This document shows positions 5,482 through 33,216 of a stretch of 64,000 nucleotides of DNA, one piece after another (position 1 is the first letter of the stretch; each line of letters opens with the position of its first letter). Source of the stretch: Candidatus Limnocylindrales bacterium. GTDB taxonomy: Bacteria > Chloroflexota > Limnocylindria > Limnocylindrales > CSP1-4. The notes beneath the pieces are model-generated. The model was not told the DNA's origin. It saw only the letters and a program-made list of their open reading frames with translations, and did not search any database. The stretch is from NCBI GenBank assembly GCA_038325875.1, contig JBBQJL010000002.1, positions 64,003 to 128,002 on the forward strand, read 5' to 3'. A program made the translations under genes and the position numbers.

Positions 5482-5709
5482 TGAGCGGGCACCTCGCGGG
5501 CGAGTCTAGCAGCGGCCAGGTCCGCTCTGCCCCATGAGTCCGCAGTTCCAGTGCGGGAAACCGCAGTCGACATCGCGGCTTCCTCGGATGCCGCCGGGCC
5601 CCGGACAAGGGACCATCACCTCAGCGAGACGCCGTGACGTGCGTCGCACCCAACGGGCCGCTCCCGGCCGACCTATCGACCCGGACCGCCCACTCGAGGG
5701 AGGACGTCG

Positions 5710-15876: not shown

Positions 15877-17601
15877 ATGCGCCTGAGCAAGTTGTTCTTC
15901 ACGTCGCTCCGCGACGATCCTGCCGATGCCGAGATGGCGTCGCACCGGCTGCTCGTTCGAGCCGGCTATGTCCGCCAGCTCGGATCGGGCCTGTACAGCC
16001 TCCTGCCGCTGGGCCATCGGGTCAACCGGCGGGTAGAGCAGGTCGTCCGCGAGGAGATGGACCGGATCGGCAGCCAGGAGATGTCGATGCCGGTCGTCCA
16101 CCCCGCGGACGTCTGGCGGGCGTCCGGTCGGTATGACCAGATCGGGCCCGAGCTCGCCCGGTTCAAGGACCGGACCGGTCGGGACATGGTCATCGCGATG
16201 ACCCACGAGGAGGTCGTCGCCGGGCTGCTCGCGGACATCGTCAGGTCGTACCGCCAGCTGCCCCTGATGGTCTACCACTTCCAGACCAAGTTCCGTGACG
16301 AGCCGCGGTCGCGTGGCGGCCTCGTCCGCGTCCGCGAGTTCGTGATGAAGGACGCCTACAGCTGCGACCTCGACGAGGCCGGCCTCGACGAGAGCTATCG
16401 GCTCCAGTACGAGGCCTACGTCCGGATCTTCGAGCGGCTCGGTCTCGAGGCGATCCCGGTCGCGTCCGATGTCGGGATGATGGGTGGGACCCAGGCACAC
16501 GAATTCATGGTCCTCAACGCGTCCGGGGAGGACGTCCTGGTCCTGTGCGAGCGCTGCGATTATTCGGCCAACCGGCAGGTCGCCGCCGTCCGCTCCCCGG
16601 CGGTCCCCGCCGTCGCCCTGCTGCCCATGGAGGAGGTCGAGACGCCGGGCACGACGACGATCGCCTCATTGGCGGCGTTCCTCGGCATCGAACCGGCGCA
16701 GACCGCCAAGGCCGCCTTCTTCGTCGCCGGGGACGGCCGGCTGATCACGGCCATCGTCCGTGGCGACCGCGAGGTCAACGAGACGAAGCTGGTCAATGCG
16801 GTCAAGGTCGCCGGCGGGCTTCGGCCCGCCCAGGTCGAGGAGATCAAGGCGGCCGGGATGGAGCCCGGCTACGGGTCGCCCGTCGGCGCGCGTGGCACGG
16901 TAGTCGTGGTCGACGAGCTGGCCGCCCGCACAGCGAACCTGGTGGCCGGCGCCAACCGGGTCGGCTGGCACATCCGCAACGTCAACGTCGGACGAGACTT
17001 CAGGGCGGACGTGGTGGCCGACATCGACAACGCCCAGGAAGGCGATCCGTGCCCGACCTGCGGCTCGCCGCTCATCCTGCGCAACGGGATCGAGGTCGGC
17101 AACATCTTCAAGCTCGGGACGAAGTACAGCGAGGCGTTCGACGCGCGCTACCTTGGCGAGGATGGCAAGGAGCACCTCATCGTCATGGGCTCGTACGGGA
17201 TCGGCATCGGCCGGAACGTCGCCTGCGTGGTCGAGGCCCACCACGACGACAAGGGCATCGTCTGGCCCGTCGAGGTGGCCCCGTATCCGGCCCACCTGGT
17301 GTCGATCGGCGTGAACAAAGAGCCTCGGGTGGAGGAGGTGGCGCAACATCTCCACGACGCTGCGGCGGCAGCCGGACGCGAGCTCCTGTGGGACGACCGG
17401 GCCGAGTCGCCCGGGGTCAAGTTCACCGATGCGGAGCTGCTCGGGATGCCCTGGATCGTGACGATCAGCCCGCGCTCGCTGGCCGCCGGCGGCGCCGAAG
17501 TGACCGATCGCTCGACGGGCGAACGGTCGGTCCGTCCGCTGGCCGATGTCGAGGCCTGGCTGACCGGCTCGGCCGACGCGGTGCCGGACGCCAGACCATG
17601 A
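15877..17601 (+). CDS. proS: proline--tRNA ligase
   Basis: Bacterial-type ProRS features are present: N-terminus MRLSKLFFTSLRDDPADAE..SHRLLVRAGY, class II motif 2 FRDEPRSRGGLVRVREF, an INS editing domain and a C-terminal anticodon domain. Confidence 0.95.
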   Translation: MRLSKLFFTSLRDDPADAEMASHRLLVRAGYVRQLGSGLYSLLPLGHRVNRRVEQVVREEMDRIGSQEMSMPVVHPADVWRASGRYDQIGPELARFKDRTGRDMVIAMTHEEVVAGLLADIVRSYRQLPLMVYHFQTKFRDEPRSRGGLVRVREFVMKDAYSCDLDEAGLDESYRLQYEAYVRIFERLGLEAIPVASDVGMMGGTQAHEFMVLNASGEDVLVLCERCDYSANRQVAAVRSPAVPAVALLPMEEVETPGTTTIASLAAFLGIEPAQTAKAAFFVAGDGRLITAIVRGDREVNETKLVNAVKVAGGLRPAQVEEIKAAGMEPGYGSPVGARGTVVVVDELAARTANLVAGANRVGWHIRNVNVGRDFRADVVADIDNAQEGDPCPTCGSPLILRNGIEVGNIFKLGTKYSEAFDARYLGEDGKEHLIVMGSYGIGIGRNVACVVEAHHDDKGIVWPVEVAPYPAHLVSIGVNKEPRVEEVAQHLHDAAAAAGRELLWDDRAESPGVKFTDAELLGMPWIVTISPRSLAAGGAEVTDRSTGERSVRPLADVEAWLTGSADAVPDARP

Positions 17602-18476: not shown

Positions 18477-19094
18477 TCACGCGTGCTTGACGACGATCCG
18501 CTCGATGATGTTGGCCACGTCCTCACAGGCATCGACGGCCGCCTCGAGGAGGTTGTAGATCTTCTTCCACTTGATGATCTCGACCGGGTCCGGGTCGCCG
18601 TCGAACAAGTCGGCGATCGCCCCCCGGACGAGCTGATCGCCCTCGTTCTCGAGGCGGTGGACCTCGATCCAGTAGCGGTCGAGTCCCTTGAAGCCGCGCA
18701 GGTTCTGGAGCGCCTCGTGGAGCAGCTCGACCTGCTTGACGATGATCGCGGACTGCAGGACCGCGGTCGCCGTGGGGGCGTCGATCCGGTACAGGCCGAA
18801 CGTGTCGCCGATCTCCTCGATGAAGTCGAGCACATCATCGAGCCCGCTGATCAGGCTATGGATATCCTCTCGGTCGAACGGCGTGACGAAGGTGCCTTCC
18901 AGGCGGCGGCCGATGTCATGGCTGATCTCATCGCCGCGCCGCTCCGCATCGCGGAGCTCGGCATTGCGCCGAGGCAGATCGTCGAAGCTGCGCAGCATCG
19001 CGTCGAGCATCCGGGCGCCAGCCAGCACGTTCGCCGCGTCCTCGACGAACAGGTCGAAGAAGCGCTCGTCGCGCGGGATGATCCGAAGTCGCAC
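18477..19094 (-). CDS. DUF47 family protein (PhoU-like Pit accessory/regulatory protein)
   Basis: It is all-helical with FFDLF..., EISHDI..., FVTPFDREDI and the C-terminal CEDVANIIERIVVKHA, typical of DUF47/TIGR00153. GTG 19094 has AGGAGG 7 nt upstream. Confidence 0.75.
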   Translation of the reverse strand: MRLRIIPRDERFFDLFVEDAANVLAGARMLDAMLRSFDDLPRRNAELRDAERRGDEISHDIGRRLEGTFVTPFDREDIHSLISGLDDVLDFIEEIGDTFGLYRIDAPTATAVLQSAIIVKQVELLHEALQNLRGFKGLDRYWIEVHRLENEGDQLVRGAIADLFDGDPDPVEIIKWKKIYNLLEAAVDACEDVANIIERIVVKHA

Positions 19095-19168
19095 GTCCGA
19101 GCCTCCTGGGATGGTCAGCGGGCCTCCAACTCTATCCCATCCGGTGCGGGCCAGCCCCCGGCGCGAGC

Positions 19169-20446
19169 GTGTGCGATGCTCCGGGGGTGGACACGCTGGT
19201 CGTCGCATTCATCGTCATCATGGCGATCCTCCTCGGGATCGCGCTAGCCCTGGCCATCGTTCGGGGCCGGGAGCTCGCCCGGATCCGGGAGTCGTTGGCC
19301 GGCAGCCACGAGCCCGGCGGTCCCTCGGTCGCTCCCGGCTCGATCGACCCAGAACAGACGATCCGGTCCCTGCTCGATCGGTCGAGCACGGCCGAATGGC
19401 AGACCGGCCAGGTCCTCCGCGACCGGGCGGCTCTGCTGGACATCATCGGGGTGGGCATCGTTCGGCTCGACGACAGGCTCCTCGTCGACGTCGCGAACGA
19501 GGCCGCTCACCAGTTCCTGGGCCGTCCACCTGGGTCGCTCGTCGGGCGGAGCGCGATCGAGGCGTTCATCGACCCGATCATCGAGGGCGTCGCGGAGACC
19601 GCCCGCGAATCAGGCGCTGCGAACGGCGAGCTGACCCTGCGTCGCGATGATGGGCCGACCCTCATCGTCCGGGCCCGTCGGTCGCCGGTCGCCGGCATCT
19701 GGCTGATCATGGAGGATGTCTCGGAGCTTCGCCGCCTCCAGCGGATCCGGGCCGAGTTCATCGACAACCTGTCCCACGAGCTGCGCACCCCGTTGACCAC
19801 CGTCAGCCTCCTGGCCGAGACCCTGGTCCGCGAGGCCGACCATGCCGGTGAAGCGATCCCGCCCAGGATGCGCGATCGGATCGGCAAGATCGAGGTCGAG
19901 ACCGATCACCTGGTCCAGATGATGGAGGAGTTGCTCGACCTGTCCAGGATCGAGTCGGGCGGCCCTCTCCTGATGCTCGACGAAGTCGACCTCGGGCGGG
20001 TCGCCATCGCCTCGGTGGAGCGGCTCCGCCTGTTCGCCGAGCGAGGGGGCGTCGAGCTCAGGACGGAGGTCCCGGCCGGCGTGCCGACGGTCCGGGGCAA
20101 CGACGATCGTCTCGGGCAGGTCCTGGTCAATCTCCTCCACAATGCGGTCAAGTTCAGTCCGGACGGCGGCAACGTCGTTGTCCGGGTCGAGGCCACCACC
20201 GAGGATGTCATCTTGTCCGTCCAGGACCACGGCGTGGGGATCCCGAAGGCCGACCAGGCGCGGGTCTTCGAGCGCTTCTACAAGGCCGACAAGGCGCGCC
20301 GACGGGGCGGCGGGACGGGCCTCGGGCTGGCCATCGCCCGGCATGTCGTCGAGGCCCACGGCGGCCGGATCTGGGTCGAGTCCGAAGAGGGCCGCGGCTC
20401 GACCTTCTCGTTCGCCTTGCCGATCGTCGTTCCGGCGCCAATCTGA
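19169..20446 (+). CDS. sensor histidine kinase, PhoR/SenX3-like (TM, PAS, HisKA, HATPase_c)
   Basis: It has the H-box FIDNLSHELRTPLT, the N-box LLHNAVKFS and the G-boxes QDHGVGI and GTGLGLAIARHVVEAHGG. The start could be GTG 19169 or GTG 19187. Confidence 0.9.
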   Translation: MCDAPGVDTLVVAFIVIMAILLGIALALAIVRGRELARIRESLAGSHEPGGPSVAPGSIDPEQTIRSLLDRSSTAEWQTGQVLRDRAALLDIIGVGIVRLDDRLLVDVANEAAHQFLGRPPGSLVGRSAIEAFIDPIIEGVAETARESGAANGELTLRRDDGPTLIVRARRSPVAGIWLIMEDVSELRRLQRIRAEFIDNLSHELRTPLTTVSLLAETLVREADHAGEAIPPRMRDRIGKIEVETDHLVQMMEELLDLSRIESGGPLLMLDEVDLGRVAIASVERLRLFAERGGVELRTEVPAGVPTVRGNDDRLGQVLVNLLHNAVKFSPDGGNVVVRVEATTEDVILSVQDHGVGIPKADQARVFERFYKADKARRRGGGTGLGLAIARHVVEAHGGRIWVESEEGRGSTFSFALPIVVPAPI

Positions 20447-21198
20447 TGACCATCGACCGGCTTCATGTCGCGACCCTCAACATCCTCAACCTGGCCGATC
20501 GCTGGCCCGAGCGCCTGCCGCTCATCCTGGCCGACTTCGCAGCCCTCCAGCCCGACGCGATCGGCCTCCAGGAAGTCGTTTTCGTGATGCAGCAGGATCG
20601 GCTGATCGGCGCGGCCGGGGTCGGCGAGTACCGGTCGGTCCGGGGTTGGGCCGGCCGACCCGAATACGGCAACGCGATGCTCCTGCGGGCGGGGCTCGAG
20701 CCGACAGCGAGCGATCGTCTCGACCTCGGTCTGGAGCGTTCCGCCCAGCGGGTCGTGCTCGACCTGCCGGGCGGCTCGACCGTCCTGTTCGCCGTCACCC
20801 ACCTGCATCACGCCGTTCCGGCTGTTGCCGAGCGAGCCGACCAGGCGCAGGCGATCGTGGCCTGGCTCGATGGCGCCCCGACGACGACCGCCCAGATCGT
20901 GGTCGGCGACTTCAACGCCGATCCAGGCGAACCGGCCTATGCCCGGATGATCGCCGCCGGCTTCCGGTCCGCGTACCTTGAGGCGAACGGCGCAGAGCCG
21001 GCGGTCACCTGGCCGTCCGGGCTCCAGGCGCCGGCCATGGACACGGACGGCGACCCGGATTGCCTCGACTACATCTGGGTCCGCGGAGCCGTCGCGATCG
21101 ACGACTGCCGGCTCGTCTTCGACCGGCCCGCGGTCGACGATCCGACGCTCTACCCGTCCGACCATCTCGGACTGGCGGCGCACCTGCGGGTCGGCTGA
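20446..21198 (+). CDS. endonuclease/exonuclease/phosphatase (EEP) family protein
   Basis: It has VATLNILN, IGLQEV, VVGDFN and the C-terminal SDHLGL catalytic His block. The ATG overlaps the HK stop (TGATG). Confidence 0.7.
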   Translation: MTIDRLHVATLNILNLADRWPERLPLILADFAALQPDAIGLQEVVFVMQQDRLIGAAGVGEYRSVRGWAGRPEYGNAMLLRAGLEPTASDRLDLGLERSAQRVVLDLPGGSTVLFAVTHLHHAVPAVAERADQAQAIVAWLDGAPTTTAQIVVGDFNADPGEPAYARMIAAGFRSAYLEANGAEPAVTWPSGLQAPAMDTDGDPDCLDYIWVRGAVAIDDCRLVFDRPAVDDPTLYPSDHLGLAAHLRVG

Positions 21199-21917: not shown

Positions 21918-22406
21918 CTACTTCGGCCGGCGGAGCAACTCGGGCGGCAGGAGCCAGCGCAGGACGCCGGTCCCCGCGGCGAGCGGGCGGGCGATGTCGA
22001 TCCTGGCCATGGCGCCCTTGCGCATCTCGATATCGAGCGCACCGGTCAGCAGCCCGAGTGCCTCGCTGAAGTCGGGATCATGTCCGATCAGGACGACGGA
22101 CGACGGATCCCCGGCGTCGGTCAGGATCGCGTCGATCGTCGCCCGAGACAGGATGTCGGCCAACCGGTCGTCGACGACCGGCCGGACCCCGAAGTGGGCG
22201 GCGAACAGGTCCGCGGTCTCTCGGGCCCGGACCTTCGGCGAGGTCACGATGGCGTCGGTGTCGAACCCGAGGCCCTTCAGGTGCGCTCCGAGTCGGTCGG
22301 TCTGGTCACGGCCCTTGGCCGACAGCGGTCGATCGTAGTCGGAACCCTGCCACTTGAGCGGGTCACCGGCGTGGGCGTGACGAAGGAGGTAGAGCTCGAT
22401 CGTCAT
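21918..22406 (-). CDS. sixA: SixA-type phosphohistidine phosphatase
   Basis: It is a 162-aa histidine-phosphatase-superfamily protein with LLRHAHAG (RHG-type motif), SPKVRARETA and LIGHDPDFSE. Confidence 0.75.
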   Translation of the reverse strand: MTIELYLLRHAHAGDPLKWQGSDYDRPLSAKGRDQTDRLGAHLKGLGFDTDAIVTSPKVRARETADLFAAHFGVRPVVDDRLADILSRATIDAILTDAGDPSSVVLIGHDPDFSEALGLLTGALDIEMRKGAMARIDIARPLAAGTGVLRWLLPPELLRRPK

Positions 22407-22418
22407 CCGGTCAGGATG

Positions 22419-23147
22419 TCACGGATTGAGGTCGACGATCTCGCCGGTCGCGAGGAACACGATGTCCTCGGCGATGTTGGTGACCCGGTCGCCGATCCGC
22501 TCGAGGTAGTGCGCCGCGAAGAGGATCCGGGTGCCGGGATCGACGTTGGCCGGATCGGCCCGCATCAACGCCAGGGTCTCCTCGAACGTCCGGTGGTAGA
22601 GCCGATCGACCTCGTCGTCGCGAGCCGCGACGGCGCGCGCTGCGACCTCGTCGATGTCCACCAGGGCACTCAGGATCCCGCGCACGAGCGAGGCGGTCAG
22701 GCGGGCCATCTCGGGCAGGCCGCGGTAGTCGCCGAGCGGAGCGAACGGGGCGAGCTTGCGGGCCTGCTTCGCGACCGACGCCGCGTGGTCGCCCATCCGC
22801 TCGAGCTCATAGGTGACGTGGTCGAGCGACAGCAGGAAGCGCAGGTCGCGGGCCACCGGCTGCTGGGTCGCGATGACCGTGGCGATCTGGGACGACAGGT
22901 GGAATTGGGCCTCGTTGATCCGACGATCCTCGCGGATGACGTTGAGCGCCTGCTCCGCGTCGTGGTGGACGAGGGCGTCGAGGGCGGCCAGGATCTGGTC
23001 CTCGACGAGGACGCCCATCCGCAGGACGCCGTCCTTGATCTCGCGCTGACCGCGGTCCAGCTCGGGCCGCACGGAATGTCCGGACTCGTGGGCGATCGTC
23101 GCGACCTGGTCGCGCACGAGATCGATTCCCTCGCGGTCGGTGGTCAT
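22419..23147 (-). CDS. phoU: phosphate signalling complex protein PhoU
   Basis: There are two PhoU repeats, with E(L/R)ERMGDHA and YLERIGDRVTNIAE metal-site motifs. GAGGAG RBS. It starts 10 nt after the pstB stop. Confidence 0.9.
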   Translation of the reverse strand: MTTDREGIDLVRDQVATIAHESGHSVRPELDRGQREIKDGVLRMGVLVEDQILAALDALVHHDAEQALNVIREDRRINEAQFHLSSQIATVIATQQPVARDLRFLLSLDHVTYELERMGDHAASVAKQARKLAPFAPLGDYRGLPEMARLTASLVRGILSALVDIDEVAARAVAARDDEVDRLYHRTFEETLALMRADPANVDPGTRILFAAHYLERIGDRVTNIAEDIVFLATGEIVDLNP

Positions 23148-23157
23148 GACGCTCCTC

Positions 23158-24102
23158 TCAGCCGAACCGACCCGAGACGTAGTCCTCGGTCAGCTGGTTC
23201 TTCGGGTTCGTGAAGATATCGTTCGTGATGCCGCTCTCAACGACGTACCCGGCCCGATCTTCGCCCATGGTCAGGAAGACGGTGATGTCCGAGGCGCGAG
23301 CCGCCTGCTGCATATTGTGAGTGACGATGACGATCGTCACGTCGTTCTTGAGCTCCATCATCAACTCCTCGATCTGGAGGGTCGCTCTCGGGTCGAGGGC
23401 AGAGCACGGCTCGTCCATGAGGATGATCTCGGGGTCCGTGGCGATCGCCCGGGCGATGCACAGCCGCTGCTGCTGGCCCCCCGACAGCGACAGACCCGAT
23501 TGCTTGAGCTTGTCTTTGACATCGCTCCACAGGGCTGCGCGGCGAAGGCTTCGCTCGACGAGCTCGTCCATGTCGCCCCGATAGCCGTTGATCCGGGCGC
23601 CGAACGCGACGTTGTCGTAGATCGACTTCGGGAAGGGGTTAGGCTTCTGGAAGACCATCCCGACCCGCCGACGGACGGCAACCGGGTCGACCTCGGGCGC
23701 GAACAGGTCCTGGCCGTCGAGCAGGACAACGCCCTCGTGGCGGAAGCTCGGGACGAGCTCGTTCATCCGGTTGAGCGTCCGGAGCAGGGTCGTCTTGCCG
23801 CAGCCCGACGGGCCGATCAGCGCGGTGATCTGCCGCCGCGCCACCGTGAGATCGACATCGCGGACGGCCCTGAACGCGCCGTAGAAGCACGACAGGCCTC
23901 TGAGCTCGAGGGCGAACTCGGCCGACGGATCGACGCCGGCGGTCGACTTCACTTCCGTCGCGTCCGGCTGGCCGGATCGGACCACGGACAGCCGGACGGA
24001 CGGCCGATCGGAGCCCTGGCCGTCGCTGAGCGGATCGGCGGCCGATGCATCCCGCACCGGCGCGTCGGTGGTCGGGCTGGCCAAGGGAGTCTCCTCTACC
24101 AC
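23158..24102 (-). CDS. pstB: phosphate ABC transporter ATP-binding protein
   Basis: It has Walker [10 protein letters not shown], the signature LSGGQQQRL, Walker B ILMDEP and the PstB C-terminus YVSGRFG. GTG 24102 overlaps the pstA stop. The N-terminal extension of about 55 aa, and therefore the start, is uncertain. Confidence 0.9.
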
Positions 24103-24995
24103 TGGATGTTGCGTGACAGGCGCACCCGCACGATGAGGGCGAGCGCATTGAGGATGAGCATGAGCACCAGGATGACGATGATCGTCGCCGCGCCGATCCC
24201 CTGGAAGTCGGCCTGCGGCCTCGAGATCCACTGGAAGACCTGGATCGGCAGGACGGTGTAACCGCCGTCGAGCGGCTGCGGCAGGAACGTCACGAAGGTG
24301 ACCGCCCCGACGAGAATGAGCGGCGCGGTCTCGCCGATCGCGCGGGCCATGGCCAGGATGATCCCGGTCATCAGCCCGGGTGCAGCGCCGGGGAGTACGG
24401 CGCCACGCACCACCTGCCAGCGGGACGCACCGAGCGCGTAGGCGCCCTCACGTTGCGAATCGGGCACGGCCCGGAGCGCCTCGACGCTGGCCAGGATGAT
24501 CACCGGCAGGATGAGCAGGACGAGGGTCAAGGCTCCCGAGATCAGGGTGTAGCCGAGGCCGAGGACGCGCACGAAGAGGGCGAGACCGAAGATGCCGTAT
24601 ATGATCGACGGAACGCCCGCCAGGTTCGAGATGTTCGTCTTCAGGAGGCGGTTGACGAAGCTGTCCCGGGCGTATTCCTGGAGATAGACCGCCGCGGCGA
24701 CGCCGACCGGGAATGCGATCAGGCCGACCAGGACCGTGATCATGATCGAGCCGACCAGCGCCGGCAGGATCCCCGCCTGCTGGGGTCGACGCGATGGGAC
24801 CCCCGTGATGAAGTCCCAGTCGACCCAGGGCAGGCCCTCGCGAAGCACGTCGAACAGGAGCAGGACGAGGGCCAGCAGGAGGATGAAGACCGCCAGCAGG
24901 CACAGGCCCAGGAACACCGTCCCGGTCAGTCTCCGGCGACCGAGCGCGGGCTGGAACTTCGCGTCCCGGGCGGATACGGCCGACGCGCTGGTCAT
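24096..24995 (-). CDS. pstA: phosphate ABC transporter permease PstA
   Basis: Only the C-terminal 299 aa of the 530-aa track ORF is permease-like (EAA region [21 protein letters not shown]). ATG 24995 overlaps the pstC stop (ATGA). Confidence 0.9.
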
Positions 24996-25984: not shown

Positions 25985-27022
25985 TTACTTGAGCGCGTTC
26001 GCGAGGGCGTCCTTCGACTTCTGGAGCACATCAGCGGTGGCCTCGATGTAGCCGACCTCGTCGACGTACGTGTTGACGTTGTCCAGGTAGTACCTGACGA
26101 AGGCTGCGAACTCGGGGCGCTTGAGCGCCTTGACGGAGGGGTAGATGAAGAGCGGCCGGCTGAGCGGCTTGTAGGTGCCGCCCGTGATGGTCTCCTTCGA
26201 CGGGGTGATGCAGCCACCGCCGCTGTCGATCGGGACGATCTTGATCTTGTCCTTGTTCTCCTCGTAGTAGGCGAACCCGAAGTAGCCCAGGGCGTTCTTG
26301 TCGCCGGCGATGCCGGTCACCAGCGCGTTGTCATCCTCCGACTGGGTGTAGTCGGACCGGCTCTGCTTGGCCTTGCCGTTGATGACCTCGGTGAAGTAGT
26401 CGAACGTGCCGGAGTCGGCACCGGGGCCGAACAGCTTGAACGGATCGGCCGGCCAGCCGGCGCGGATGTCCGCCCAGGTCTTCGCCGTGCTAGCGGCGTC
26501 CCACATCTTCTTGAGCTCGGCGGTCGTCAGGCAGTCGACCCAGGTGTTCTGCGGGTTGACCAGGACCGACAGCCCGTCGGTCGCGATGCCCAACTGGACC
26601 CAGTCGATCCCGCCTGCCTTGCACAGGGTTTCCTCCGACTTGGCATCGGCCGTGTCGCTCGAGGACGGCTTGATCGGCCGCGAGGCGTCGTTCATGTCGG
26701 TCTCGCCGGCGCAGAACTTCTTGAACCCGCCACCGGTCCCGGCGAACGCTGCGGTGACCTTGACGCCGGGGTTCGCCTTCTGGAACTCCTCGGCAACGGC
26801 TTCGGTGATGGGATAGACCGTGCTCGAACCGTCGATATTGACCGAGCCGGTGAGCGCTGCGGCAGAACCTGGTACGGCAGTTGCTCCGCCGGGGGCCGAG
26901 CTGGCCCCGGTCGTGGCGGCGCTGGTCGGGGCAGCCGACGAGCCGGAGCTCGAGCAGGCACCCGCCACGAGGGCGGCAACGAAGGCCAGGGTGGCGAGGC
27001 GCTTCGGGGTGGTGATGGTCAC
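25985..27022 (-). CDS. pstS: phosphate ABC transporter substrate-binding lipoprotein PstS
   Basis: GTG 27022 (AGAGGAA upstream) gives 345 aa. It has the lipobox LVAGAC and the PstS blocks IDGSSTVYPI, GTGGGF and YPLSRPLF-like (YKPLSRPLFIY). Confidence 0.9.
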   Translation of the reverse strand: MTITTPKRLATLAFVAALVAGACSSSGSSAAPTSAATTGASSAPGGATAVPGSAAALTGSVNIDGSSTVYPITEAVAEEFQKANPGVKVTAAFAGTGGGFKKFCAGETDMNDASRPIKPSSSDTADAKSEETLCKAGGIDWVQLGIATDGLSVLVNPQNTWVDCLTTAELKKMWDAASTAKTWADIRAGWPADPFKLFGPGADSGTFDYFTEVINGKAKQSRSDYTQSEDDNALVTGIAGDKNALGYFGFAYYEENKDKIKIVPIDSGGGCITPSKETITGGTYKPLSRPLFIYPSVKALKRPEFAAFVRYYLDNVNTYVDEVGYIEATADVLQKSKDALANALK

Positions 27023-27096
27023 GTCGATGAGTTCCTCTGGGCGGCGGGCATCATCGGCCCGCCTCTGCTTGGTCGTTACCCATCGAGGGTCGGTCG

Positions 27097-27140
27097 GTCG
27101 GATGAACGGACAGTCAGCGCCGTGTTCGTCGTTTGTTAAC
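27097..27140 (-). promoter_or_regulatory. four 11-nt-phased PHO-box-like direct repeats upstream of pstS
   Basis: Read on the minus strand the units are GTTAACaaacg ACGAACacggc GCTGACtgtcc GTTCATccgac. They lie 75-118 nt upstream of the pstS start and share the core seen before the phoP-like gene. Confidence 0.5.
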
Positions 27141-27234
27141 GATGTCGGGTCGTCCACCGGGACCCTGACGCGCGGTCGACCCACGGTCTGTCCCGCCGTG
27201 GCACGATGGACCGGACAGCCGCAGGGAGGCCGGG

Positions 27235-28041
27235 ATGGCGAAAGCAGCCAAGAAGCAACACGCCGACGACGCCGATCGCGCGTTCCGGAAGGCCTGGAAG
27301 CTGCTCGGCCGACTCGAGCGTCGTCTCGAGCGGGAGCGAGCCGAGGAGCGGAAGCGGACTCGCCAACTTGGCGAAGGAACCGGTCCCGACGCCGAAAGGC
27401 GATCGGTCCAGCTCGAGGCTGCCCGGGTCGAGATCGCCCAGATCGAGGGGCTCCTCACCGAGCTGTCGGAGCTGATGGCCGCCAATGCCCGGGCGTCCTC
27501 GGGGCAGACGGTCAAGGACATGGCGACCGCGGTCGCCGCCGAGATCAGGGAAGAGGCCGCCGAGCCTCCGACCCTGTCGACGCGTCGCCGCAACCGGCAT
27601 CACCGGCCACGTCGTCGACCCGTTGAAGCCGAGGCGACCGAGCCACAGCCGGAGCCGGAGCCCCAGCCCGAGCGCCAGCCCGAGCCGCAGCCCCAGCCCG
27701 AGCCGCAGCCCCAGCCCGAGCCGCAGCCCGAGCCGGAGCCCCTGCCGCAGCCGGAGCCGCAGCCCGAGCCGCAGCCGCAGCGCCAGCCCGAGCCGCAGCG
27801 CCAGCCGCAGCCCGAGCCGCAGCCCGAGCCGGAGCCCCTGCCCGAGCCGCAGCCCGAGCCGGAGCCCCTACCCGAGCCGCAGCCGCAGCCCGAGCCGGAG
27901 CCCCTGCCCGAGCCGCAGCCGCAGCCCCAGCCGCAGCCCCAGCCCCAGCCCCAGCCCGAGCCCGCGCCCCAGCCCGAACCACGGTCCCGGGCTGGTCTGG
28001 GATCGTCAACGAACGACGAGGCGTCGGCGATCGAGGAGTGA
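27235..28041 (+). CDS. orphan protein: basic coiled-coil N-domain, polybasic patch, (Pro-Glu/Gln)n repeat
   Basis: GGGAGG lies 5 nt before ATG 27235. The N-terminus reads [16 protein letters not shown], followed by [13 protein letters not shown] and then about 115 aa of strictly alternating P-E/Q. The stop overlaps the ppx GTG (GTGA). I recognise no family. Confidence 0.6.
27640..27980 (+). repeat. imperfect tandem 6/12-nt (CCNGAG/CCGCAG) coding repeat with 36-45-nt higher-order units
   Basis: The gagccgcagcccgagccggagcccctgcc block recurs about 4 times. The region is free of stops in several frames on both strands, which explains the track ORFs 27485-28243, 27545-28216 and 27600-28091. Confidence 0.85.
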
Positions 28042-28973
28042 GCCGAGCTCGTCGCGCTGCGTCGGTCGATATCGGCTCGACGTCCGTCCACCTGCTCATC
28101 GGCGATCTCGACGACGGAGCGGTCGACCCTGTCCTCGACATGTCGGAGATCCTGGGCCTCGGTGGACGGATCGCCGCCTCAGGCGTGCTGGGGCTCGAGG
28201 CTCGAGGCGAGCTCACCCGGACCCTCGCGATCTACGCCGATGAAGCGCGCCGGCTCCAGGCCGAGGCGATCGTCTTCGTCGGGACGGACCCGCTCCGACA
28301 CGCCGCTGATGCCGGCCGCGTATGTCATGAGATCGAGCGGGCGACCAGCGTGCCGGTGCACGTTCTGGATCAGGCCGAGGAGGGCGCCCTCACGCTTCTC
28401 GGCGTCACCGGTGGGGTGGTCGATCGTGACCTCGCCATCATCGACATCGGGGGTGGCAGCACCGAGATCATCGTCGCCAAGGCTGACGGGACCACCGATG
28501 TCGTGGGACTGCCGCTCGGGGCGTCGCGCCTATCCGTGATGGTCGGTGTCGACGACCCGCCGAGCCCGGCCCAGGTCGCCGCGCTTCGACGAGAGGCCGA
28601 CCGGATCGTGGCGGCGGCACCGGATCTCGAACTGGGCGACGTCGTCGCCGTCGGTGGGACCGCCTACGGGGTCGCCCGAGTGGCGACCGGCCCCGGCTTC
28701 GGCGAGCGGATGGTCGACGCGGATGGGATCGCCCATGCCGTCGCGCTGTCGGGCAGCGAGCGTGCCGACCGGCTCGCGGAGCTGTTCGGCCTGAACCCGC
28801 GCCGGGCCCGGATCATGCCGGCCGGAGCGGCGATCGTCGCTTCCCTGGCGGCGCGCTACGGCATCGACCGGATCCGGGCGTCGGAGCAGGGCATCCGGGA
28901 GGGGATCATCCGAGCGGTCCTTCGCGACGGTCCGGCGTGGCGGGACCGGCTCGTCTGGAGCAGGTCCGCCTAG
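28038..28973 (+). CDS. ppx: Ppx/GppA-family phosphatase (short, actin-like ATPase domains only)
   Basis: It has the phosphate-1 loop [13 protein letters not shown], the [10 protein letters not shown] block and the phosphate-2 loop [10 protein letters not shown]. At 311 aa it lacks the C-terminal HD region of long Ppx enzymes. Confidence 0.85.
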
Positions 28974-31051
28974 AGCGTCGCGATCGTCCGTCCGAGTGCG
29001 CGACGGAAGGTCAGGCCGGCCACGCTTCGCCATGGGACGCCGACCGTCCGCCTAAGGCGGGTGACCTCCCGTTCCCGAGCGACGAGGTAGCGGCTGATCG
29101 CCGACGACTGCGTGTCGGTCAGATCCCCGGCATGCTCGACGAGGTACGCGCGGGCCATGTGGGCGCCGATCTCGGCGTCGTTCATCGCCCCGAGGTGGTC
29201 CTGGAGTGCGACGACCCGCGAGATGAGGGCGGGCGCCTCGGGACCGAGTGCCTCGCGCACGAACTCGAGGGTGTAGCGCAGGCGCTTGGCCTCGATCCGG
29301 AGCATGTGCAGGGTCGGCACGTCCGCCCACTTCAGGACGGATTCGTACGCTCGAACTTGCTCATAGGAGTTCCAGATCCGCGAGCCGGCGGTGTCGCGGA
29401 CTCGATGCGGACTGGTCGGATCGACGTGAATGGCATGCATCCCAGGGGTGAGGACGAACTCGCTGTACTCCTCGACGAACCGGCGATACCCGCTCGAGTC
29501 GAGCTCGTGGACGAGCAACTGTCGTCCCGCGTCACGCTGCTCGCGCCACGAGTCGATGAGCGGGTCGAGCCCGTCGTGCTCACCGCCCGGCAGGGCGGCC
29601 GCGAACGTCACGGTCGCCTCGATGAGCACGTCCAGGTCGCGGACCGTCCCGAGCCGAGCCGCGATCGTCCGGAGCCGGCGCTTGAACTTCGCCGTCCGAT
29701 CCGGCCGGAAGCCATCGCCGAAGACCCGCCACGCGGCCCGCATCCGACGGGTCGATACGCGCATCGCGTGGAGCTCCTCGAGGTCAACGCCTTCACGCGT
29801 CCCTTCTTCTCGGGCGAGCATCCTGGCGAGGTGGAATCGGAAGACCTTGCGACCGGCCTCCGCGTGGAGGTCGTCCGCCGCGATCCCGGGCGACTTGCCG
29901 ACGGGGATCGTCCCGACGAGCTCGACGTTCGTCGGCGTCCCGAGGATCGGCGCAGGAACGGCCTGAGCCTCCTCGATGAGCTCGGGGGTGTCGTCGAGCG
30001 CGTCGAGGTCGATGACCGCGCCTTCGACCGGTCCATCCTCGGATGGCGGCTGTGGCCTCGTCTTCGGCTCGCGCGTTCGCGGGTGATCGGTCTCGGCCGA
30101 GCCGTCCTGCCGCTCGGCAGCTTCGGCGGTGGGGGTCTCGGCCTTGGGAGGTGCCTCGTTCTCGGGAGGTGCCCCGGCGGCGGGTGCCTCGGCTGCGGCG
30201 AGGGCCGTCGTCTGTCGGTCGGGAACGGCCTCGTCAGATGCCGTCGTCTCGGCGGTCGCCGGCGCGCTCGCTTCGATCGGGGTCTCCGCCACCGCAGGCG
30301 GCTCGGGCTCGGGCTCGGGCGTCGCCCCCGGCTCGGCGAGTGGCGTCTTCGAAGCCGGCCCAGCACGGAGTGCGACCTGCTCGGCTGTCCGCGGTCGTGC
30401 GGCAGTCCGGCTCGGAGCAGGACGCGCTGCCTGGAGAGCGCGGGCCAACTTGGATCCGGGCGCCGCGCTCAGGCCATGGTGGCCGTCGAGGAGGGCCTGG
30501 AGCGGGGCGAGCGCGGCGATCGGGCCGCGGGTGAGCTCCAGCTCCAGCTCGAGGAAGCGTTCGACCACCCGGCCGTGCGACACGACGTCGACCTCGTCGA
30601 GGCTCAGCTCGATGGCGGCATCCTCGTCGAGTAGCTCCAGGTCCCGCTTGCGGCGGAACTGGCGGATCGTGACCAGCTCGACGAGCGGCGCGTCACCGCA
30701 CAGCTCGAGGATGAGCGAGCGCGCGGCCGATGCCGGCCAGCCCGCCGCCGCTGGGGTTCGGTCGGCCGGACCCTCGAGCTCCTCGCGTCGATGGAGCGAG
30801 CCGTCGCCCTCCTCGGTCGACTTGACCGTGACGACCGTGCCGTTCGATGCGGTCCGGAGTCGGGCCGCGTAGCCCGCTCGCGCCAGGGCGCTGTCGGCAG
30901 AGTCGATGTAGCGGTCCTCGTGCTGTGTCGGCCGGGGAGCGCCGACCGCGCGGAACCCGGCGAGGGTGTCCGCATTGAGCAGTCGCTCGCCGATGGTCCG
31001 CTCGGCGACCGTGTACTTGAGCTCGATCTCGAGCGGCTTCTCGACCGTCAT
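28970..31051 (-). CDS. CYTH domain - long disordered linker - CHAD domain protein
   Basis: The N-terminal triphosphate-tunnel signature is EIELKY with alternating basic/acidic beta strands. The linker is about 190 aa and A/E/P/T-rich. The C-terminal CHAD helices include LHAMRVSTRRMRAAWRVF and RLGTVRDLDVL. The ATG overlaps the ppk stop (ATGA). Confidence 0.85.
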   Translation of the reverse strand: MTVEKPLEIELKYTVAERTIGERLLNADTLAGFRAVGAPRPTQHEDRYIDSADSALARAGYAARLRTASNGTVVTVKSTEEGDGSLHRREELEGPADRTPAAAGWPASAARSLILELCGDAPLVELVTIRQFRRKRDLELLDEDAAIELSLDEVDVVSHGRVVERFLELELELTRGPIAALAPLQALLDGHHGLSAAPGSKLARALQAARPAPSRTAARPRTAEQVALRAGPASKTPLAEPGATPEPEPEPPAVAETPIEASAPATAETTASDEAVPDRQTTALAAAEAPAAGAPPENEAPPKAETPTAEAAERQDGSAETDHPRTREPKTRPQPPSEDGPVEGAVIDLDALDDTPELIEEAQAVPAPILGTPTNVELVGTIPVGKSPGIAADDLHAEAGRKVFRFHLARMLAREEGTREGVDLEELHAMRVSTRRMRAAWRVFGDGFRPDRTAKFKRRLRTIAARLGTVRDLDVLIEATVTFAAALPGGEHDGLDPLIDSWREQRDAGRQLLVHELDSSGYRRFVEEYSEFVLTPGMHAIHVDPTSPHRVRDTAGSRIWNSYEQVRAYESVLKWADVPTLHMLRIEAKRLRYTLEFVREALGPEAPALISRVVALQDHLGAMNDAEIGAHMARAYLVEHAGDLTDTQSSAISRYLVAREREVTRLRRTVGVPWRSVAGLTFRRALGRTIATL

Positions 31052-33216
31052 GCCCGCGGGTCCAGCGAGCCGATGCCCGAACCAGGCCGATGCGGCGCGG
31101 CCGCCTCACGCGTCGACTCGAGTGTGATCCGCTTGTGCTCGGCGAACGTGTCGACCGTGCCCTCGACCCCGGTCAGCTCCTCCGTCCGGCGCCAGACCGC
31201 GTCGGTCCCGAGCTGCCACGAGCGCCGATCATCGGCCAGCATTGTTCTGACGATCCCCTCGATCCGGGCGGACGCCTCGGCGTCCTCGATCGGAACGACC
31301 GCCTCGATGCGTCGGTCGAGGTTCCGTTCCATCAGGTCCGCCGACCCGATGTACCACTCGGGCGAGCCGCCGTTGGCGAAGCCGAAGATCCGCGAGTGCT
31401 CGAGGAACTCGCCCACCACCGAGCGGACGCGCACTCGCTCGGACAGGCCGGGGACACCGGGGCGGACCGAGCAGATGCCACGCACGATGAGGTCGACATC
31501 GACACCGGACTGGCTGGCCCGGTAGATCGCGGCGATCGACTCGGGGTCGACGATCGCATTGAGTTTGAGGACGATGCGGGCGTTCCGGCCGACCTTGGCG
31601 AACTCGATCTCGCGCTCGATCAGGGCCAGGATCCGCGAGCGCAGGCTGTGCGGTGCCACGAGCAGGCGTCGGAAGTCGCGCTGACGCGACAGCCCGGTCA
31701 GGACATTGAACAGGTCGGTCGCATCGGCGCCCAGCTCGGGGCGGCAGGACAGCAGACCGAGATCGGTGTACAGCCGGGCCGTCTTCGGGTTGTAGTTGCC
31801 CGTCCCGATGTGGACGTATCGGCGGAGGAGCGATCCTTCACGGCGGACGACGAGGGCGACCTTCGAGTGCGTCTTCAGACCGACCAAGCCGTACACGACG
31901 TGGGCGCCGGCCTGCTCGAGCTTGCGCGCCCAGACGATGTTGGCCTCCTCGTCGAAGCGCGCCTTGATCTCGACCAGGACGACCACCTGCTTGCCCCGCT
32001 CGGACGCCCGGATGAGGTCGCGCACGATGGGCGAGTCGCCGGACGTCCGGTACAGGGTCTGCTTGATCGTCAGGACCTCGGGATCCTCCGCTGCCTGGGC
32101 GATGAAGCGCTCGACCGAAGCAGCGAACGAGTCGTACGGGTGGTGGACCAGGATGTCGCCGAGGCGCACGGCTGCGAAGACGTCGGTCGGTTCGTCTTCG
32201 TCGGGCGGCAGCAGCCGCGGAGGGACGACCGGGGTCCAGGTCGGTAGCTGGAGGTCGGGCCGGTCCAGCCCGGCGATCGCCCACAGCCCGGTCAGGTCGA
32301 GCATCCCGGCGACGTCGTAGCAGTCGGCTGGGGCCAGGCCGATGCCGTCGAGCAGGATCTGGCGGGTCGCCGCGGGCATGCTTCGCTCGACCTCGAGTCT
32401 GACCGCCTCGCCGAACCGCCGGCGCCGGAGCTCCTCCTCGATCGCCAGGAGCAGGTCTCCGGCCTCGTCCTCCTCGATCGCCAGATCCGCGTTGCGGGTG
32501 ACTCGGAAGAGGTGGGCGTCGGTGATCTCCATGCCGGTGAACAGGAGGTCCAGGTTGTTGGCGATGACCTGGTCGATGAGGACCCATGTGTTCGGTTCTG
32601 CCTCGATCAGGCGGGGCAGCACCGGTGGGACTTTGACCCGCGCGAACCGGCGCTCGCCGCTGTCCGGATCGCGCAGCCCGACCGCGATCGACAGGCTGAG
32701 CGTGCTGATATATGGGAACGGATGACCGGGATCCACCGCCAGCGGGGTGAGGACCGGGAAGATCTCGTCGATGAACCGCTCACGCAGCCGGGCGTGATGC
32801 TGAGGCACCTTGTTGTACTTGACGATCGAGATGCCGTGATCGGTGAGTGCCTTGCGGATCTCCGCGAACGTCGTCGAGTGCTCGGCGATGAGGTGCCGGA
32901 CGACGGGACGGATCAGCTCGAGCTGGCGCGCGGCAGACAGTCCGTCGGGCGACTCGCGGGCCGATCGAGCCGCAGCCTGCTGACGCAACCCGGCGATGCG
33001 GACCTGGAAGAACTCGTCGAGGTTGCTGGCGAAGATGGCCAGGAACTTGACTCGCTCCAGGAGTGGGTTACGGGAGTCCTGCGCCTGGTACAGGACGCGA
33101 GCGTTCCAGTCGAGCCACGACAGCTCACGATTGATGTAACGGAGCCCCGCCTTGGTCGGGACGCGGCGAAGTCGCGTCGGGCGGTTCTCGGCCCGGGCGG
33201 ACCGTGCGGCTGACAT
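31048..33216 (-). CDS. ppk: polyphosphate kinase 1
   Basis: It is 722 aa with the PPK1 N-terminus YINRELSWLDWNARVL and the autophosphorylation-region block LVGLKTHSKVALVVRRE. Two PLD-like C-terminal domains are present (HIGTGNYN). Confidence 0.95.
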   Translation of the reverse strand: MSAARSARAENRPTRLRRVPTKAGLRYINRELSWLDWNARVLYQAQDSRNPLLERVKFLAIFASNLDEFFQVRIAGLRQQAAARSARESPDGLSAARQLELIRPVVRHLIAEHSTTFAEIRKALTDHGISIVKYNKVPQHHARLRERFIDEIFPVLTPLAVDPGHPFPYISTLSLSIAVGLRDPDSGERRFARVKVPPVLPRLIEAEPNTWVLIDQVIANNLDLLFTGMEITDAHLFRVTRNADLAIEEDEAGDLLLAIEEELRRRRFGEAVRLEVERSMPAATRQILLDGIGLAPADCYDVAGMLDLTGLWAIAGLDRPDLQLPTWTPVVPPRLLPPDEDEPTDVFAAVRLGDILVHHPYDSFAASVERFIAQAAEDPEVLTIKQTLYRTSGDSPIVRDLIRASERGKQVVVLVEIKARFDEEANIVWARKLEQAGAHVVYGLVGLKTHSKVALVVRREGSLLRRYVHIGTGNYNPKTARLYTDLGLLSCRPELGADATDLFNVLTGLSRQRDFRRLLVAPHSLRSRILALIEREIEFAKVGRNARIVLKLNAIVDPESIAAIYRASQSGVDVDLIVRGICSVRPGVPGLSERVRVRSVVGEFLEHSRIFGFANGGSPEWYIGSADLMERNLDRRIEAVVPIEDAEASARIEGIVRTMLADDRRSWQLGTDAVWRRTEELTGVEGTVDTFAEHKRITLESTREAAAPHRPGSGIGSLDPRA

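Follow-up and report, generated by a model that had tools for sequence, protein, structure and literature searches.

A conserved, lineage-restricted hairpin protein family encoded directly upstream of ppx in uncultured Chloroflexota

We analysed a 64,000-nucleotide (nt) stretch of DNA, 70% GC, from a Candidatus Limnocylindrales bacterium (GenBank contig JBBQJL010000002.1, positions 64,003 to 128,002; hereafter the window), in which an open reading frame (ORF) of 268 amino acids (aa) at 27235-28041, here called gene X, lies between pstS and the exopolyphosphatase gene ppx. Protein X is a member of a conserved, lineage-restricted and unnamed family, which we define here as the "ppx-upstream hairpin protein" family. 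The window protein carries the hairpin signature of this family, is encoded immediately before a short-form ppx, and ends in a Pro-rich charged tail that lacks regular secondary structure. A first-pass annotation of the same DNA had described X as an orphan belonging to no recognised family, and, although it is correct that no named family accommodates the protein, a conserved family restricted to this lineage does exist. The family has an unusually tight genomic tie to ppx and a design resembling that of the polyphosphate (polyP) granule protein AlgP that has been reached without detectable homology; the window member, with its acidic Pro-Glu/Gln tail and invariant Arg/His motif, is a distinctive variant. 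Gene X, its parts and the gene to which it is coupled are as follows, with the basis of each assignment in brackets.

27224-27229, plus strand: Shine-Dalgarno sequence GGGAGG, 5 nt before the ATG of X (sequence; GGAGG is kept in close relatives).
27235-28041, plus strand: gene X, 268 aa, which opens the X-ppx operon and encodes a hairpin domain joined to a disordered, charged tail (ORF, codon-position GC, homologous clusters, substitution rates).
27235-27567, plus strand: N-terminal domain of X, residues 1-111, an antiparallel two-helix coiled-coil hairpin (alignment, AlphaFold2 (AF2) model).
27583-27621, plus strand: polybasic short linear motif, residues 117-129 (invariant amino acids across nine loci with synonymous codon change).
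27634-27984, plus strand: acidic Pro-Xaa region, residues 134-250, in which Xaa is Glu or Gln and in some places Leu, Arg or Ala (Tandem Repeats Finder (TRF), alternation statistics, AF2 model).
27985-28038, plus strand: C-terminal 18 residues of X, the last ~13 codons being in frame with close relatives (…SPTGEPPAEGA; DNA alignment).
28038-28973, plus strand: short-form exopolyphosphatase of the Ppx/GppA family, 311 aa (PF02541, 1.2e-34; TIGR03706, 2e-50).

Synteny provides the strongest evidence on X. Scanning one genome per GTDB species yielded 25 loci, all of them in metagenome-assembled genomes (MAGs) labelled Chloroflexia, Chloroflexota or Candidatus Limnocylindria/Limnocylindrales, and ppx directly follows X in 22 of these; one further locus (L018) is partial and two stop at a contig edge. 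A divergent subfamily occupies the same place in 36 metagenome loci, flanked by pstS, CYTH-CHAD and ppk1 genes, and ppx is the next gene in all 20 that have enough downstream sequence. The adjacency to ppx first noted in the window is therefore shared by its relatives. In the window, the TGA of X (28039-28041) overlaps the GTG (28038-28040) of the 311-aa Ppx-GppA protein, and this GTGA overlap at 28038-28041, which the first-pass annotation had read as translational coupling, recurs in L002/L014, L006, L007, L010, L013, L063/L064 and L066; elsewhere the two genes are separated by roughly 15-190 nt. Because the identity of Ppx to the window enzyme falls to 40-46% across these loci, the pairing of X with ppx must be old. 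Moreover, three long homologue contigs share a common gene order, in which the pst operon and phoU precede X, ppx comes next, and the CYTH/CHAD and ppk1 genes are convergent with the pair, and this order survives the insertion of crcB/DUF190 or MerR/LMW phosphatase genes between pstS and X.

Homologues are as abundant as the synteny is consistent. A search with residues 1-134, thereby leaving out the repeat, returned 43 protein clusters (E 4e-51 to 6e-24), none of which carries a Pfam domain or a meaningful name, and a second search added a further 30 homologous clusters to give 70+ overall. An exhaustive hidden Markov model scan of 1.84 billion cluster representatives gave 32 matches at E<=1e-3, so the family is small. 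The weakest of these matches, P0066-P0070 (E 8e-6 to 7e-4), constitute the divergent subfamily, whose relationship is seen in profile-profile comparison (hhalign 97.3%, E 2e-11). Neither the exact X sequence nor the exact Ppx sequence was present in a collection of 15 billion proteins when looked up directly, and tblastn found no paralogue of X within the window.

X is a real gene under purifying selection. The ORF runs from the ATG at 27235 to the TGA ending at 28041, and the GGGAGG ribosome-binding site and absence of a signal peptide ascribed to it at first pass are both evident in the sequence. Its N-terminus is charged and has no hydrophobic signal-like stretch; lacking a transmembrane anchor or signal peptide, X is therefore cytoplasmic. 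In the N-terminal, non-repeat part of the gene the GC content at the three codon positions is 0.76/0.53/0.79, compared with 0.79/0.52/0.84 in ppx, and the pattern is that of the flanking genes. Ratios of nonsynonymous to synonymous substitution (dN/dS) over codons 1-111, calculated by the Nei-Gojobori method, are 0.15-0.34 for X against six relatives and 0.12-0.20 between the relatives themselves. Both measures favour the X frame over the alternative frames that the first-pass annotation had considered for this part of the gene. Within the repeat array every forward frame is open, as is the reverse strand, and GC content at the first and third codon positions (GC1 and GC3) is ~1.0, so frame statistics are uninformative there, and these same properties might lead one to regard X as a spurious ORF thrown up by GC-rich repeat sequence. 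The probability of that reading is negligible, and the conservation data already refute it: the N-terminal domain is conserved (dN/dS 0.12-0.34), 70+ homologous clusters exist, the Shine-Dalgarno sequence and start are conserved, and in-frame alignment with relatives flanks the repeat on both sides, through the polybasic motif before it and the last ~13 codons after it. The C-terminal DNA alignment with close relatives contains one 3-nt in-frame indel.

The hairpin of ~110 residues is the sole part of X that is conserved across the family. Alignment of family members delineates a sharply conserved domain of this length with 22 invariant columns, beyond which the tails cannot be aligned, and the window protein, which is 57-77% identical to other members over residues 1-111, contains the family signature AF.[KR]AWKLLGRLE … LLTELSELI. 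AF2 models the domain as two long antiparallel helices, residues 2-47 and 51-108, with a mean predicted local distance difference test (pLDDT) score of 80, and the hairpin is reproduced in the model of full-length X. Helix 1 is basic (16 Lys and Arg against 9 Asp and Glu) and helix 2 is acidic and hydrophobic (6 against 11), while the hydrophobic residues of the hairpin have a/d-type spacing, all of which agrees with the charged, helical and heptad-like N-terminus first read from the letters. Searches of X and its family against Pfam, NCBIfam and PDB sequences returned nothing above noise except composition-driven matches to the tail. When the hairpin model was compared with the PDB using Foldseek, all 256 matches were to generic hairpins and none reached E<=0.001; the best was Asgard ESCRT-IIIB (E 0.64, TM-score 0.61), and others included Vipp1, Skp and the arms of SerRS. 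The resemblance to ESCRT-III, PspA and Vipp1 is that of a generic hairpin, and X lacks their helices alpha3-alpha5.

The tail begins with the polybasic patch noticed at first pass, which occupies residues 117-129. Over nine loci and sixteen copies, the amino acids of this 12-residue Arg/His motif are essentially invariant even as the Arg, His and Pro codons vary freely, a combination that marks a short linear motif under selection. One to three copies are present in each protein of the window's clade, and translating the window in all six frames yields a single occurrence of the motif. The acidic region that follows had been described as strictly alternating, which is nearly right: Pro occupies every second position of residues 134-250 (117 residues) except in three places where Arg replaces it. 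The longest perfect Pro-Xaa run is 60 residues, with Xaa being Gln 13 times, Glu 12, Leu 3, and Ala and Arg once each, and at the DNA level TRF reports a tandem array at 27647-27977 with a period of 12/18 and 18-28 copies. In the AF2 model the tail has neither helix nor strand, with pLDDT of about 50-76, and in the window protein this (Pro-Glu/Gln)n tail has a net charge of -17.

Tails elsewhere in the family vary from ~30 to ~370 residues and are unalignable between clades. Those of the window's clade are net acidic (-6 to -53), with copies of the 12-residue motif interspersed among Pro-Glu-rich blocks, which are PEPQ in the window and EPEPTP or EPEPSP in the closest relatives (L007, L009, L012 and L013). 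The divergent subfamily, by contrast, shares with several main-family clades a long and strongly basic tail in which Ala, Lys, Pro, Thr and Arg abound; tails of this kind resemble histone H1, carry net charges of +9 to +17 and include repeats such as AAKPAAKPAA and ARKPAARKP. What the tail retains throughout the family is thus disorder, abundant Pro, high charge and one or more polybasic elements. The acidic Pro-Glu/Gln segment, read at first pass as a rod, is a genuine feature of the window protein but not of the family: it is a lineage-specific elaboration, acidic tails being confined to the window's clade, and any mechanism invoking a rigid acidic spacer therefore applies to this lineage alone. 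The basic-tail clades (L016-L026, L034-L046) often end in RPR.RRSL[QR]P(G)..D.D..S, and this RRSL[QR]P-type C-terminal motif, judged from sequence, may be a docking motif distinct from the 12-residue motif.

Among characterised proteins, the closest in design is AlgP of P. aeruginosa, whose 124-aa N-terminal domain, helical and of unknown function, precedes a disordered tail of 195 aa made of KPAA repeats; AlgP localises to polyP granules and is needed for their even spacing, its tail being a mutational hot spot (PMC9239181). Like AlgP (AlgR3, PF27285), X has an all-helical N-domain of ~110-125 aa followed by a long, disordered, repeat-rich and hypervariable charged tail, and the AAKPAAKP and ARKPAARKP tails of its sister clades have the same composition as the KPAA repeats. 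The two proteins differ in that AlgP is tied to polyP granules by experiment whereas X is tied to polyP genes by synteny. In addition, X is operonic with ppx and is found in Chloroflexota rather than Pseudomonadota, and the window protein has an acidic Pro-Glu/Gln tail and an Arg/His motif in place of KPAA. Homology was rejected on the basis of hhalign comparisons, in which the X profile scored 4.6% against a profile of the AlgP N-terminal domain (10 sequences) and 0.3% against a single AlgP sequence; nor did X match an AlgP model in Pfam at E<=0.1. With no detectable homology between the N-domains, X is therefore AlgP-like in design and not a member of the AlgP family, and we infer that it may be a functional analogue, rather than a homologue, of the Pseudomonas protein.

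Other proteins resemble X in part. PhaF-type phasins, which are granule-associated, likewise combine a helical, granule-binding N-terminal module with an H1-like tail that binds nucleic acid, but the genomic context of X is polyP and not polyhydroxyalkanoate (PHA), and the N-domain of X is a hairpin dense in charged residues, unlike the amphipathic helix with which phasins bind PHA; neither X nor any of four family members tested gave a Pfam or NCBIfam Phasin match at E<=0.1-1. The long alternating Pro-Glu or Pro-Xaa runs of the TonB Pro-rich spacer and of procyclin, (EP)n, are a purely compositional likeness. Such (Glu-Pro)n and Pro-Xaa tracts of TonB and trypanosome procyclin form extended polyproline-II-like rods. 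Matches of X to TonB (NF008084; 21.8 bits against a cut-off of 315) and to PARP (Trypan_PARP, PF05887; 32.2 against 100) fall in the repeat only, and X differs from TonB in having no transmembrane anchor, no TonB C-terminal domain and no hydrophobic segment. CHAD domains bind polyP (PMC6537752), and the CHAD phosins (PptA) are helical proteins encoded beside ppk/ppx that bind polyP through surfaces rich in Arg, Lys and His (PMC6537752, PMC6771595). X has a two-helix hairpin and a disordered tail, in contrast to the two four-helix bundles of CHAD. Homology to CHAD (PF05235) was rejected, there being no Pfam match and an hhalign score of 0.4% for the X profile against the CYTH-CHAD protein of the window, as was homology to PhoU (hhalign).

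On these grounds we propose that X is a polyP-associated structural or adaptor protein, made together with Ppx, that would organise polyP granules or bring Ppx to them, a proposal drawn from genomic context and composition on which we ourselves are evenly divided. The hairpin would serve as an oligomerisation and/or Ppx-docking module, and the tail would supply polyanion-binding elements, namely an H1/AlgP-like tail of Ala, Lys, Pro and Arg in most lineages and the one to three copies of the 12-residue motif in the window's clade. These elements could anchor X, and possibly co-translated Ppx, to polyP chains or granules. In the window lineage, the acidic (Pro-Glu/Gln)n segment might then project from the polyP surface as an extended anionic bristle or spacer that could limit granule fusion or contact with the nucleoid. 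The idea of a polyP/Ppx scaffold, raised speculatively at first pass, is strengthened by the invariant operon position, the invariant polybasic motif and the AlgP-like tails of sister clades, and is still something that we infer. Several observations count against it. The hairpin fold is generic and offers no functional clue (Foldseek best E 0.64), and many bacteria use short-form Ppx without such a partner. Within the family the net charge of the tail swings from about +17 to -53; this charge flip is the main unexplained fact, and it argues against any single simple electrostatic model. Furthermore, Arg-rich motifs and KPAA-type tails bind DNA and RNA too (PMC12818456). In the literature library that was searched, no paper linked Limnocylindria to polyphosphate. 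A more elaborate version, which we consider improbable, would make X a surfactant or organiser of polyP-granule condensates that evolved independently of AlgP: the hairpin would oligomerise, the basic elements would anchor in the polyP phase, an acidic polyproline-II brush would face outward and X would hold the co-translated short Ppx at the granule surface, the anionic brush of the window's clade perhaps setting granule size, blocking fusion and repelling the nucleoid.

Three other explanations compete with an adaptor role at the granule. X might instead be a dedicated regulator or chaperone of Ppx that does not act as a polyP-binding scaffold, with the hairpin binding Ppx stoichiometrically and the charged tail tuning its activity; acidic tails could mimic polyP, either occupying the substrate channel or competing for polyP surfaces, and basic tails could feed substrate to the enzyme. 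Strict adjacency and a frequent 4-nt overlap, maintained with Ppx identity down to 40-46%, would be expected of such a partner, as would the confinement of universal conservation to the hairpin. The invariant polybasic motif and long H1-like tails, however, resemble polyanion binders and not enzyme-binding elements, and sister clades whose tails are oppositely charged would have to regulate Ppx in opposite senses, so that we regard a regulatory role as unlikely, if the least so of the three. It is also conceivable that X is a nucleoid- or RNA-associated H1-like protein, induced along with the phosphate-starvation regulon and linked to ppx by co-regulation only, whose basic tails or Arg-rich motif would bind DNA or RNA instead of polyP. 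The 12-residue motif does resemble arginine-rich RNA-binding motifs. In addition, AAKP/KPAA-type tails bind DNA (PMC9239181) and the KPAA tail of PhaF binds RNA (PMC12818456), which keeps this explanation alive. Against it, co-regulation alone leaves the invariant place before ppx and the recurrent stop/start overlap (more than 40 loci) unexplained, and the net acidic tails of the window's clade (-6 to -53) are ill-suited to coating nucleic acid; we therefore rate a nucleic-acid role as improbable as the surfactant model. Finally, the hairpin alone might be functional in some role, and the tail, including the Pro-Glu/Gln array, might be a neutral low-complexity product of replication slippage in a 70% GC genome. 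The length variation and unalignability of the tails between clades, the simple 6-nt-based tandem repeat that underlies the array and the similar Pro/Ala/Glu linkers in the neighbouring CYTH-CHAD protein all fit this description. Yet the tail is always present, always highly charged and always Pro-rich, the polybasic motif is both invariant under synonymous change and duplicated, and C-terminal motifs such as RRSLQPG..DPD..S are kept within clades, which leaves a neutral origin for the tail very improbable.

To our knowledge, the proteins known to organise bacterial polyP granules are AlgP, the CHAD phosins and little else. The X family supplies the one gene that shares an operon with ppx without exception throughout a class of Chloroflexota that are abundant in soil and fresh water but uncultured, and its tails range from H1-like polycations to blocky polyampholytes with an invariant 12-residue Arg/His motif. 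If X binds polyP or Ppx, it would represent a second, independently evolved granule organiser built from a helical head and a charged disordered tail, and would provide both a defined peptide motif for studies of polyP binding and a natural series of tail charges with which condensate physics could be tested. Should the surfactant model be true, the clades with oppositely charged tails would amount to an experiment by nature on how the interfaces of polyP condensates are tuned. Even if X binds neither, it defines a cleanly delimited family that merits a database entry.

X and ppx lie within a phosphate supercluster at 18.4-33.2 kb of the window, which comprises PhoU_div, a histidine kinase, two phosphatase-family proteins, PhoU, PstBACS, X, Ppx, CYTH-CHAD and Ppk1. 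The genes flanking the X-ppx pair and those of the upstream phosphate cluster are:

18480-19208, minus strand: PhoU_div/DUF47, upstream phosphate cluster.
19169-20443, plus strand: PAS-HisKA-HATPase kinase, upstream phosphate cluster.
20446-21195: Exo_endo_phos protein, upstream phosphate cluster.
21921-22406, minus strand: His_Phos_1 protein, upstream phosphate cluster.
22422-23147, minus strand: PhoU, upstream phosphate cluster.
25985-27184, minus strand: pstS (PBP_like_2), divergent from X (Pfam 3.9e-30, ORF translation).
28970-31051, minus strand: CYTH-CHAD protein, 693 aa, convergent with X-ppx (PF05235, 1.1e-51; PF01928, 3e-14).
31048-33216, minus strand: polyphosphate kinase 1 (ppk1), 722 aa, co-directional with the CYTH-CHAD gene (ORF; similarity to genes of related loci).

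The match of the window Ppx to the NCBIfam exopolyphosphatase model TIGR03706, at 2e-50, is nevertheless under the curated cut-off, and the 311-aa enzyme is without the additional C-terminal half present in E. coli Ppx (513 aa). The window ppk1 is 59-95% identical, over the best tblastn segment, to genes of related loci that carry PP_kinase Pfam families. In the CYTH-CHAD protein, residues ~205-400 contain a low-complexity linker of ~190 residues between the domains that is rich in Pro, Ala, Glu and Thr and includes PEPEPEP, and gene calling in some relatives (L002) assigns the CHAD part and the part upstream of it to separate genes. The longest ORFs of pstS and pstB (23158-24231) have N-terminal extensions of about 55 aa and 100 aa that do not look native, the true starts being likely internal; for pstS a start near 27022 is probable, immediately ahead of the lipoprotein-like signal LAFVAALVAGAC (near residue 65).

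Frameshifts in the GC-rich repeats of MAG assemblies cause X and X-Ppx ORFs to be called wrongly, with spurious fusions in long-read MAGs, and are a hazard for annotation of this family. Arg/Ser/Pro stretches of the type …RSPSPSRR… in the tails of L008, L012, L013 and L022, and of P0047, P0049 and P0055, are the +1 frame of (EPEPxP)n, and premature stops and read-throughs also occur. In L004 (5001-7175) and L027 (5113-6846), X reads in frame into Ppx to give apparent fusion proteins. We rejected such fusions as Rosetta-stone evidence: L004 has one extra base at the junction relative to the short-read contig L066, which has the usual GTGA, and this single inserted base is probably a long-read indel, so the fusion was not counted. 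At the partial locus L018 only the first ~30 codons of ppx are present (5569-5650), and the rest of the gene, CYTH-CHAD and ppk1 are not in the next 4.6 kb; the truncation could reflect a rearrangement or a chimeric contig.

Two candidate regulatory elements precede X:

27100-27143, minus strand: Pho-box-like array of four direct repeats with 11-nt spacing, GTTAACaaacg ACGAACacggc GCTGACtgtcc GTTCATccgac (sequence).
27198-27209, plus strand: conserved element GTGGCACGATGG, candidate -10 or promoter element of X (conserved position).

The array at 27100-27143 falls within a block that is conserved in loci keeping pstS as the divergent neighbour, and precedes the probable start of pstS by about 75-120 nt. 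Its sequence is consistent with a candidate PhoB/PhoP-type box that would serve pstS and possibly X, shared use being plausible. A second Pho box was rejected, as the 3 TTTGTTAACGA-like sites seen elsewhere in the window do not exceed what chance produces (0.97 expected; 10 of 100 shuffles reach 3), and one of them, at 17309, falls inside the prolyl-tRNA synthetase gene. No sigma-70-like promoter and no credible terminator were found in 26800-29300, and no Rfam family was found in the X region, where a match to the Xoo5 small RNA at E 0.18 is driven by composition. The pattern GTGGCA[CG]GAT[GT]G is present as one exact copy 26-64 nt before the start of X in 11 related loci (L001, L004-L010, L012, L022 and L066), which include every locus of the RRNRHHR clade, whichever gene lies upstream. 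It matches the window once, and because about one match per window is expected by chance, its evidential weight lies in its conserved position, from which we consider GTGGCACGATGG to be probably the promoter element of X itself. In one clade, a 201-229-aa protein divergent from X takes the place of pstS (L001, 5180-5785, minus strand; L066, 209-898, minus strand), and its sole recorded Pfam match is to Trans_reg_C of the OmpR/PhoB type.

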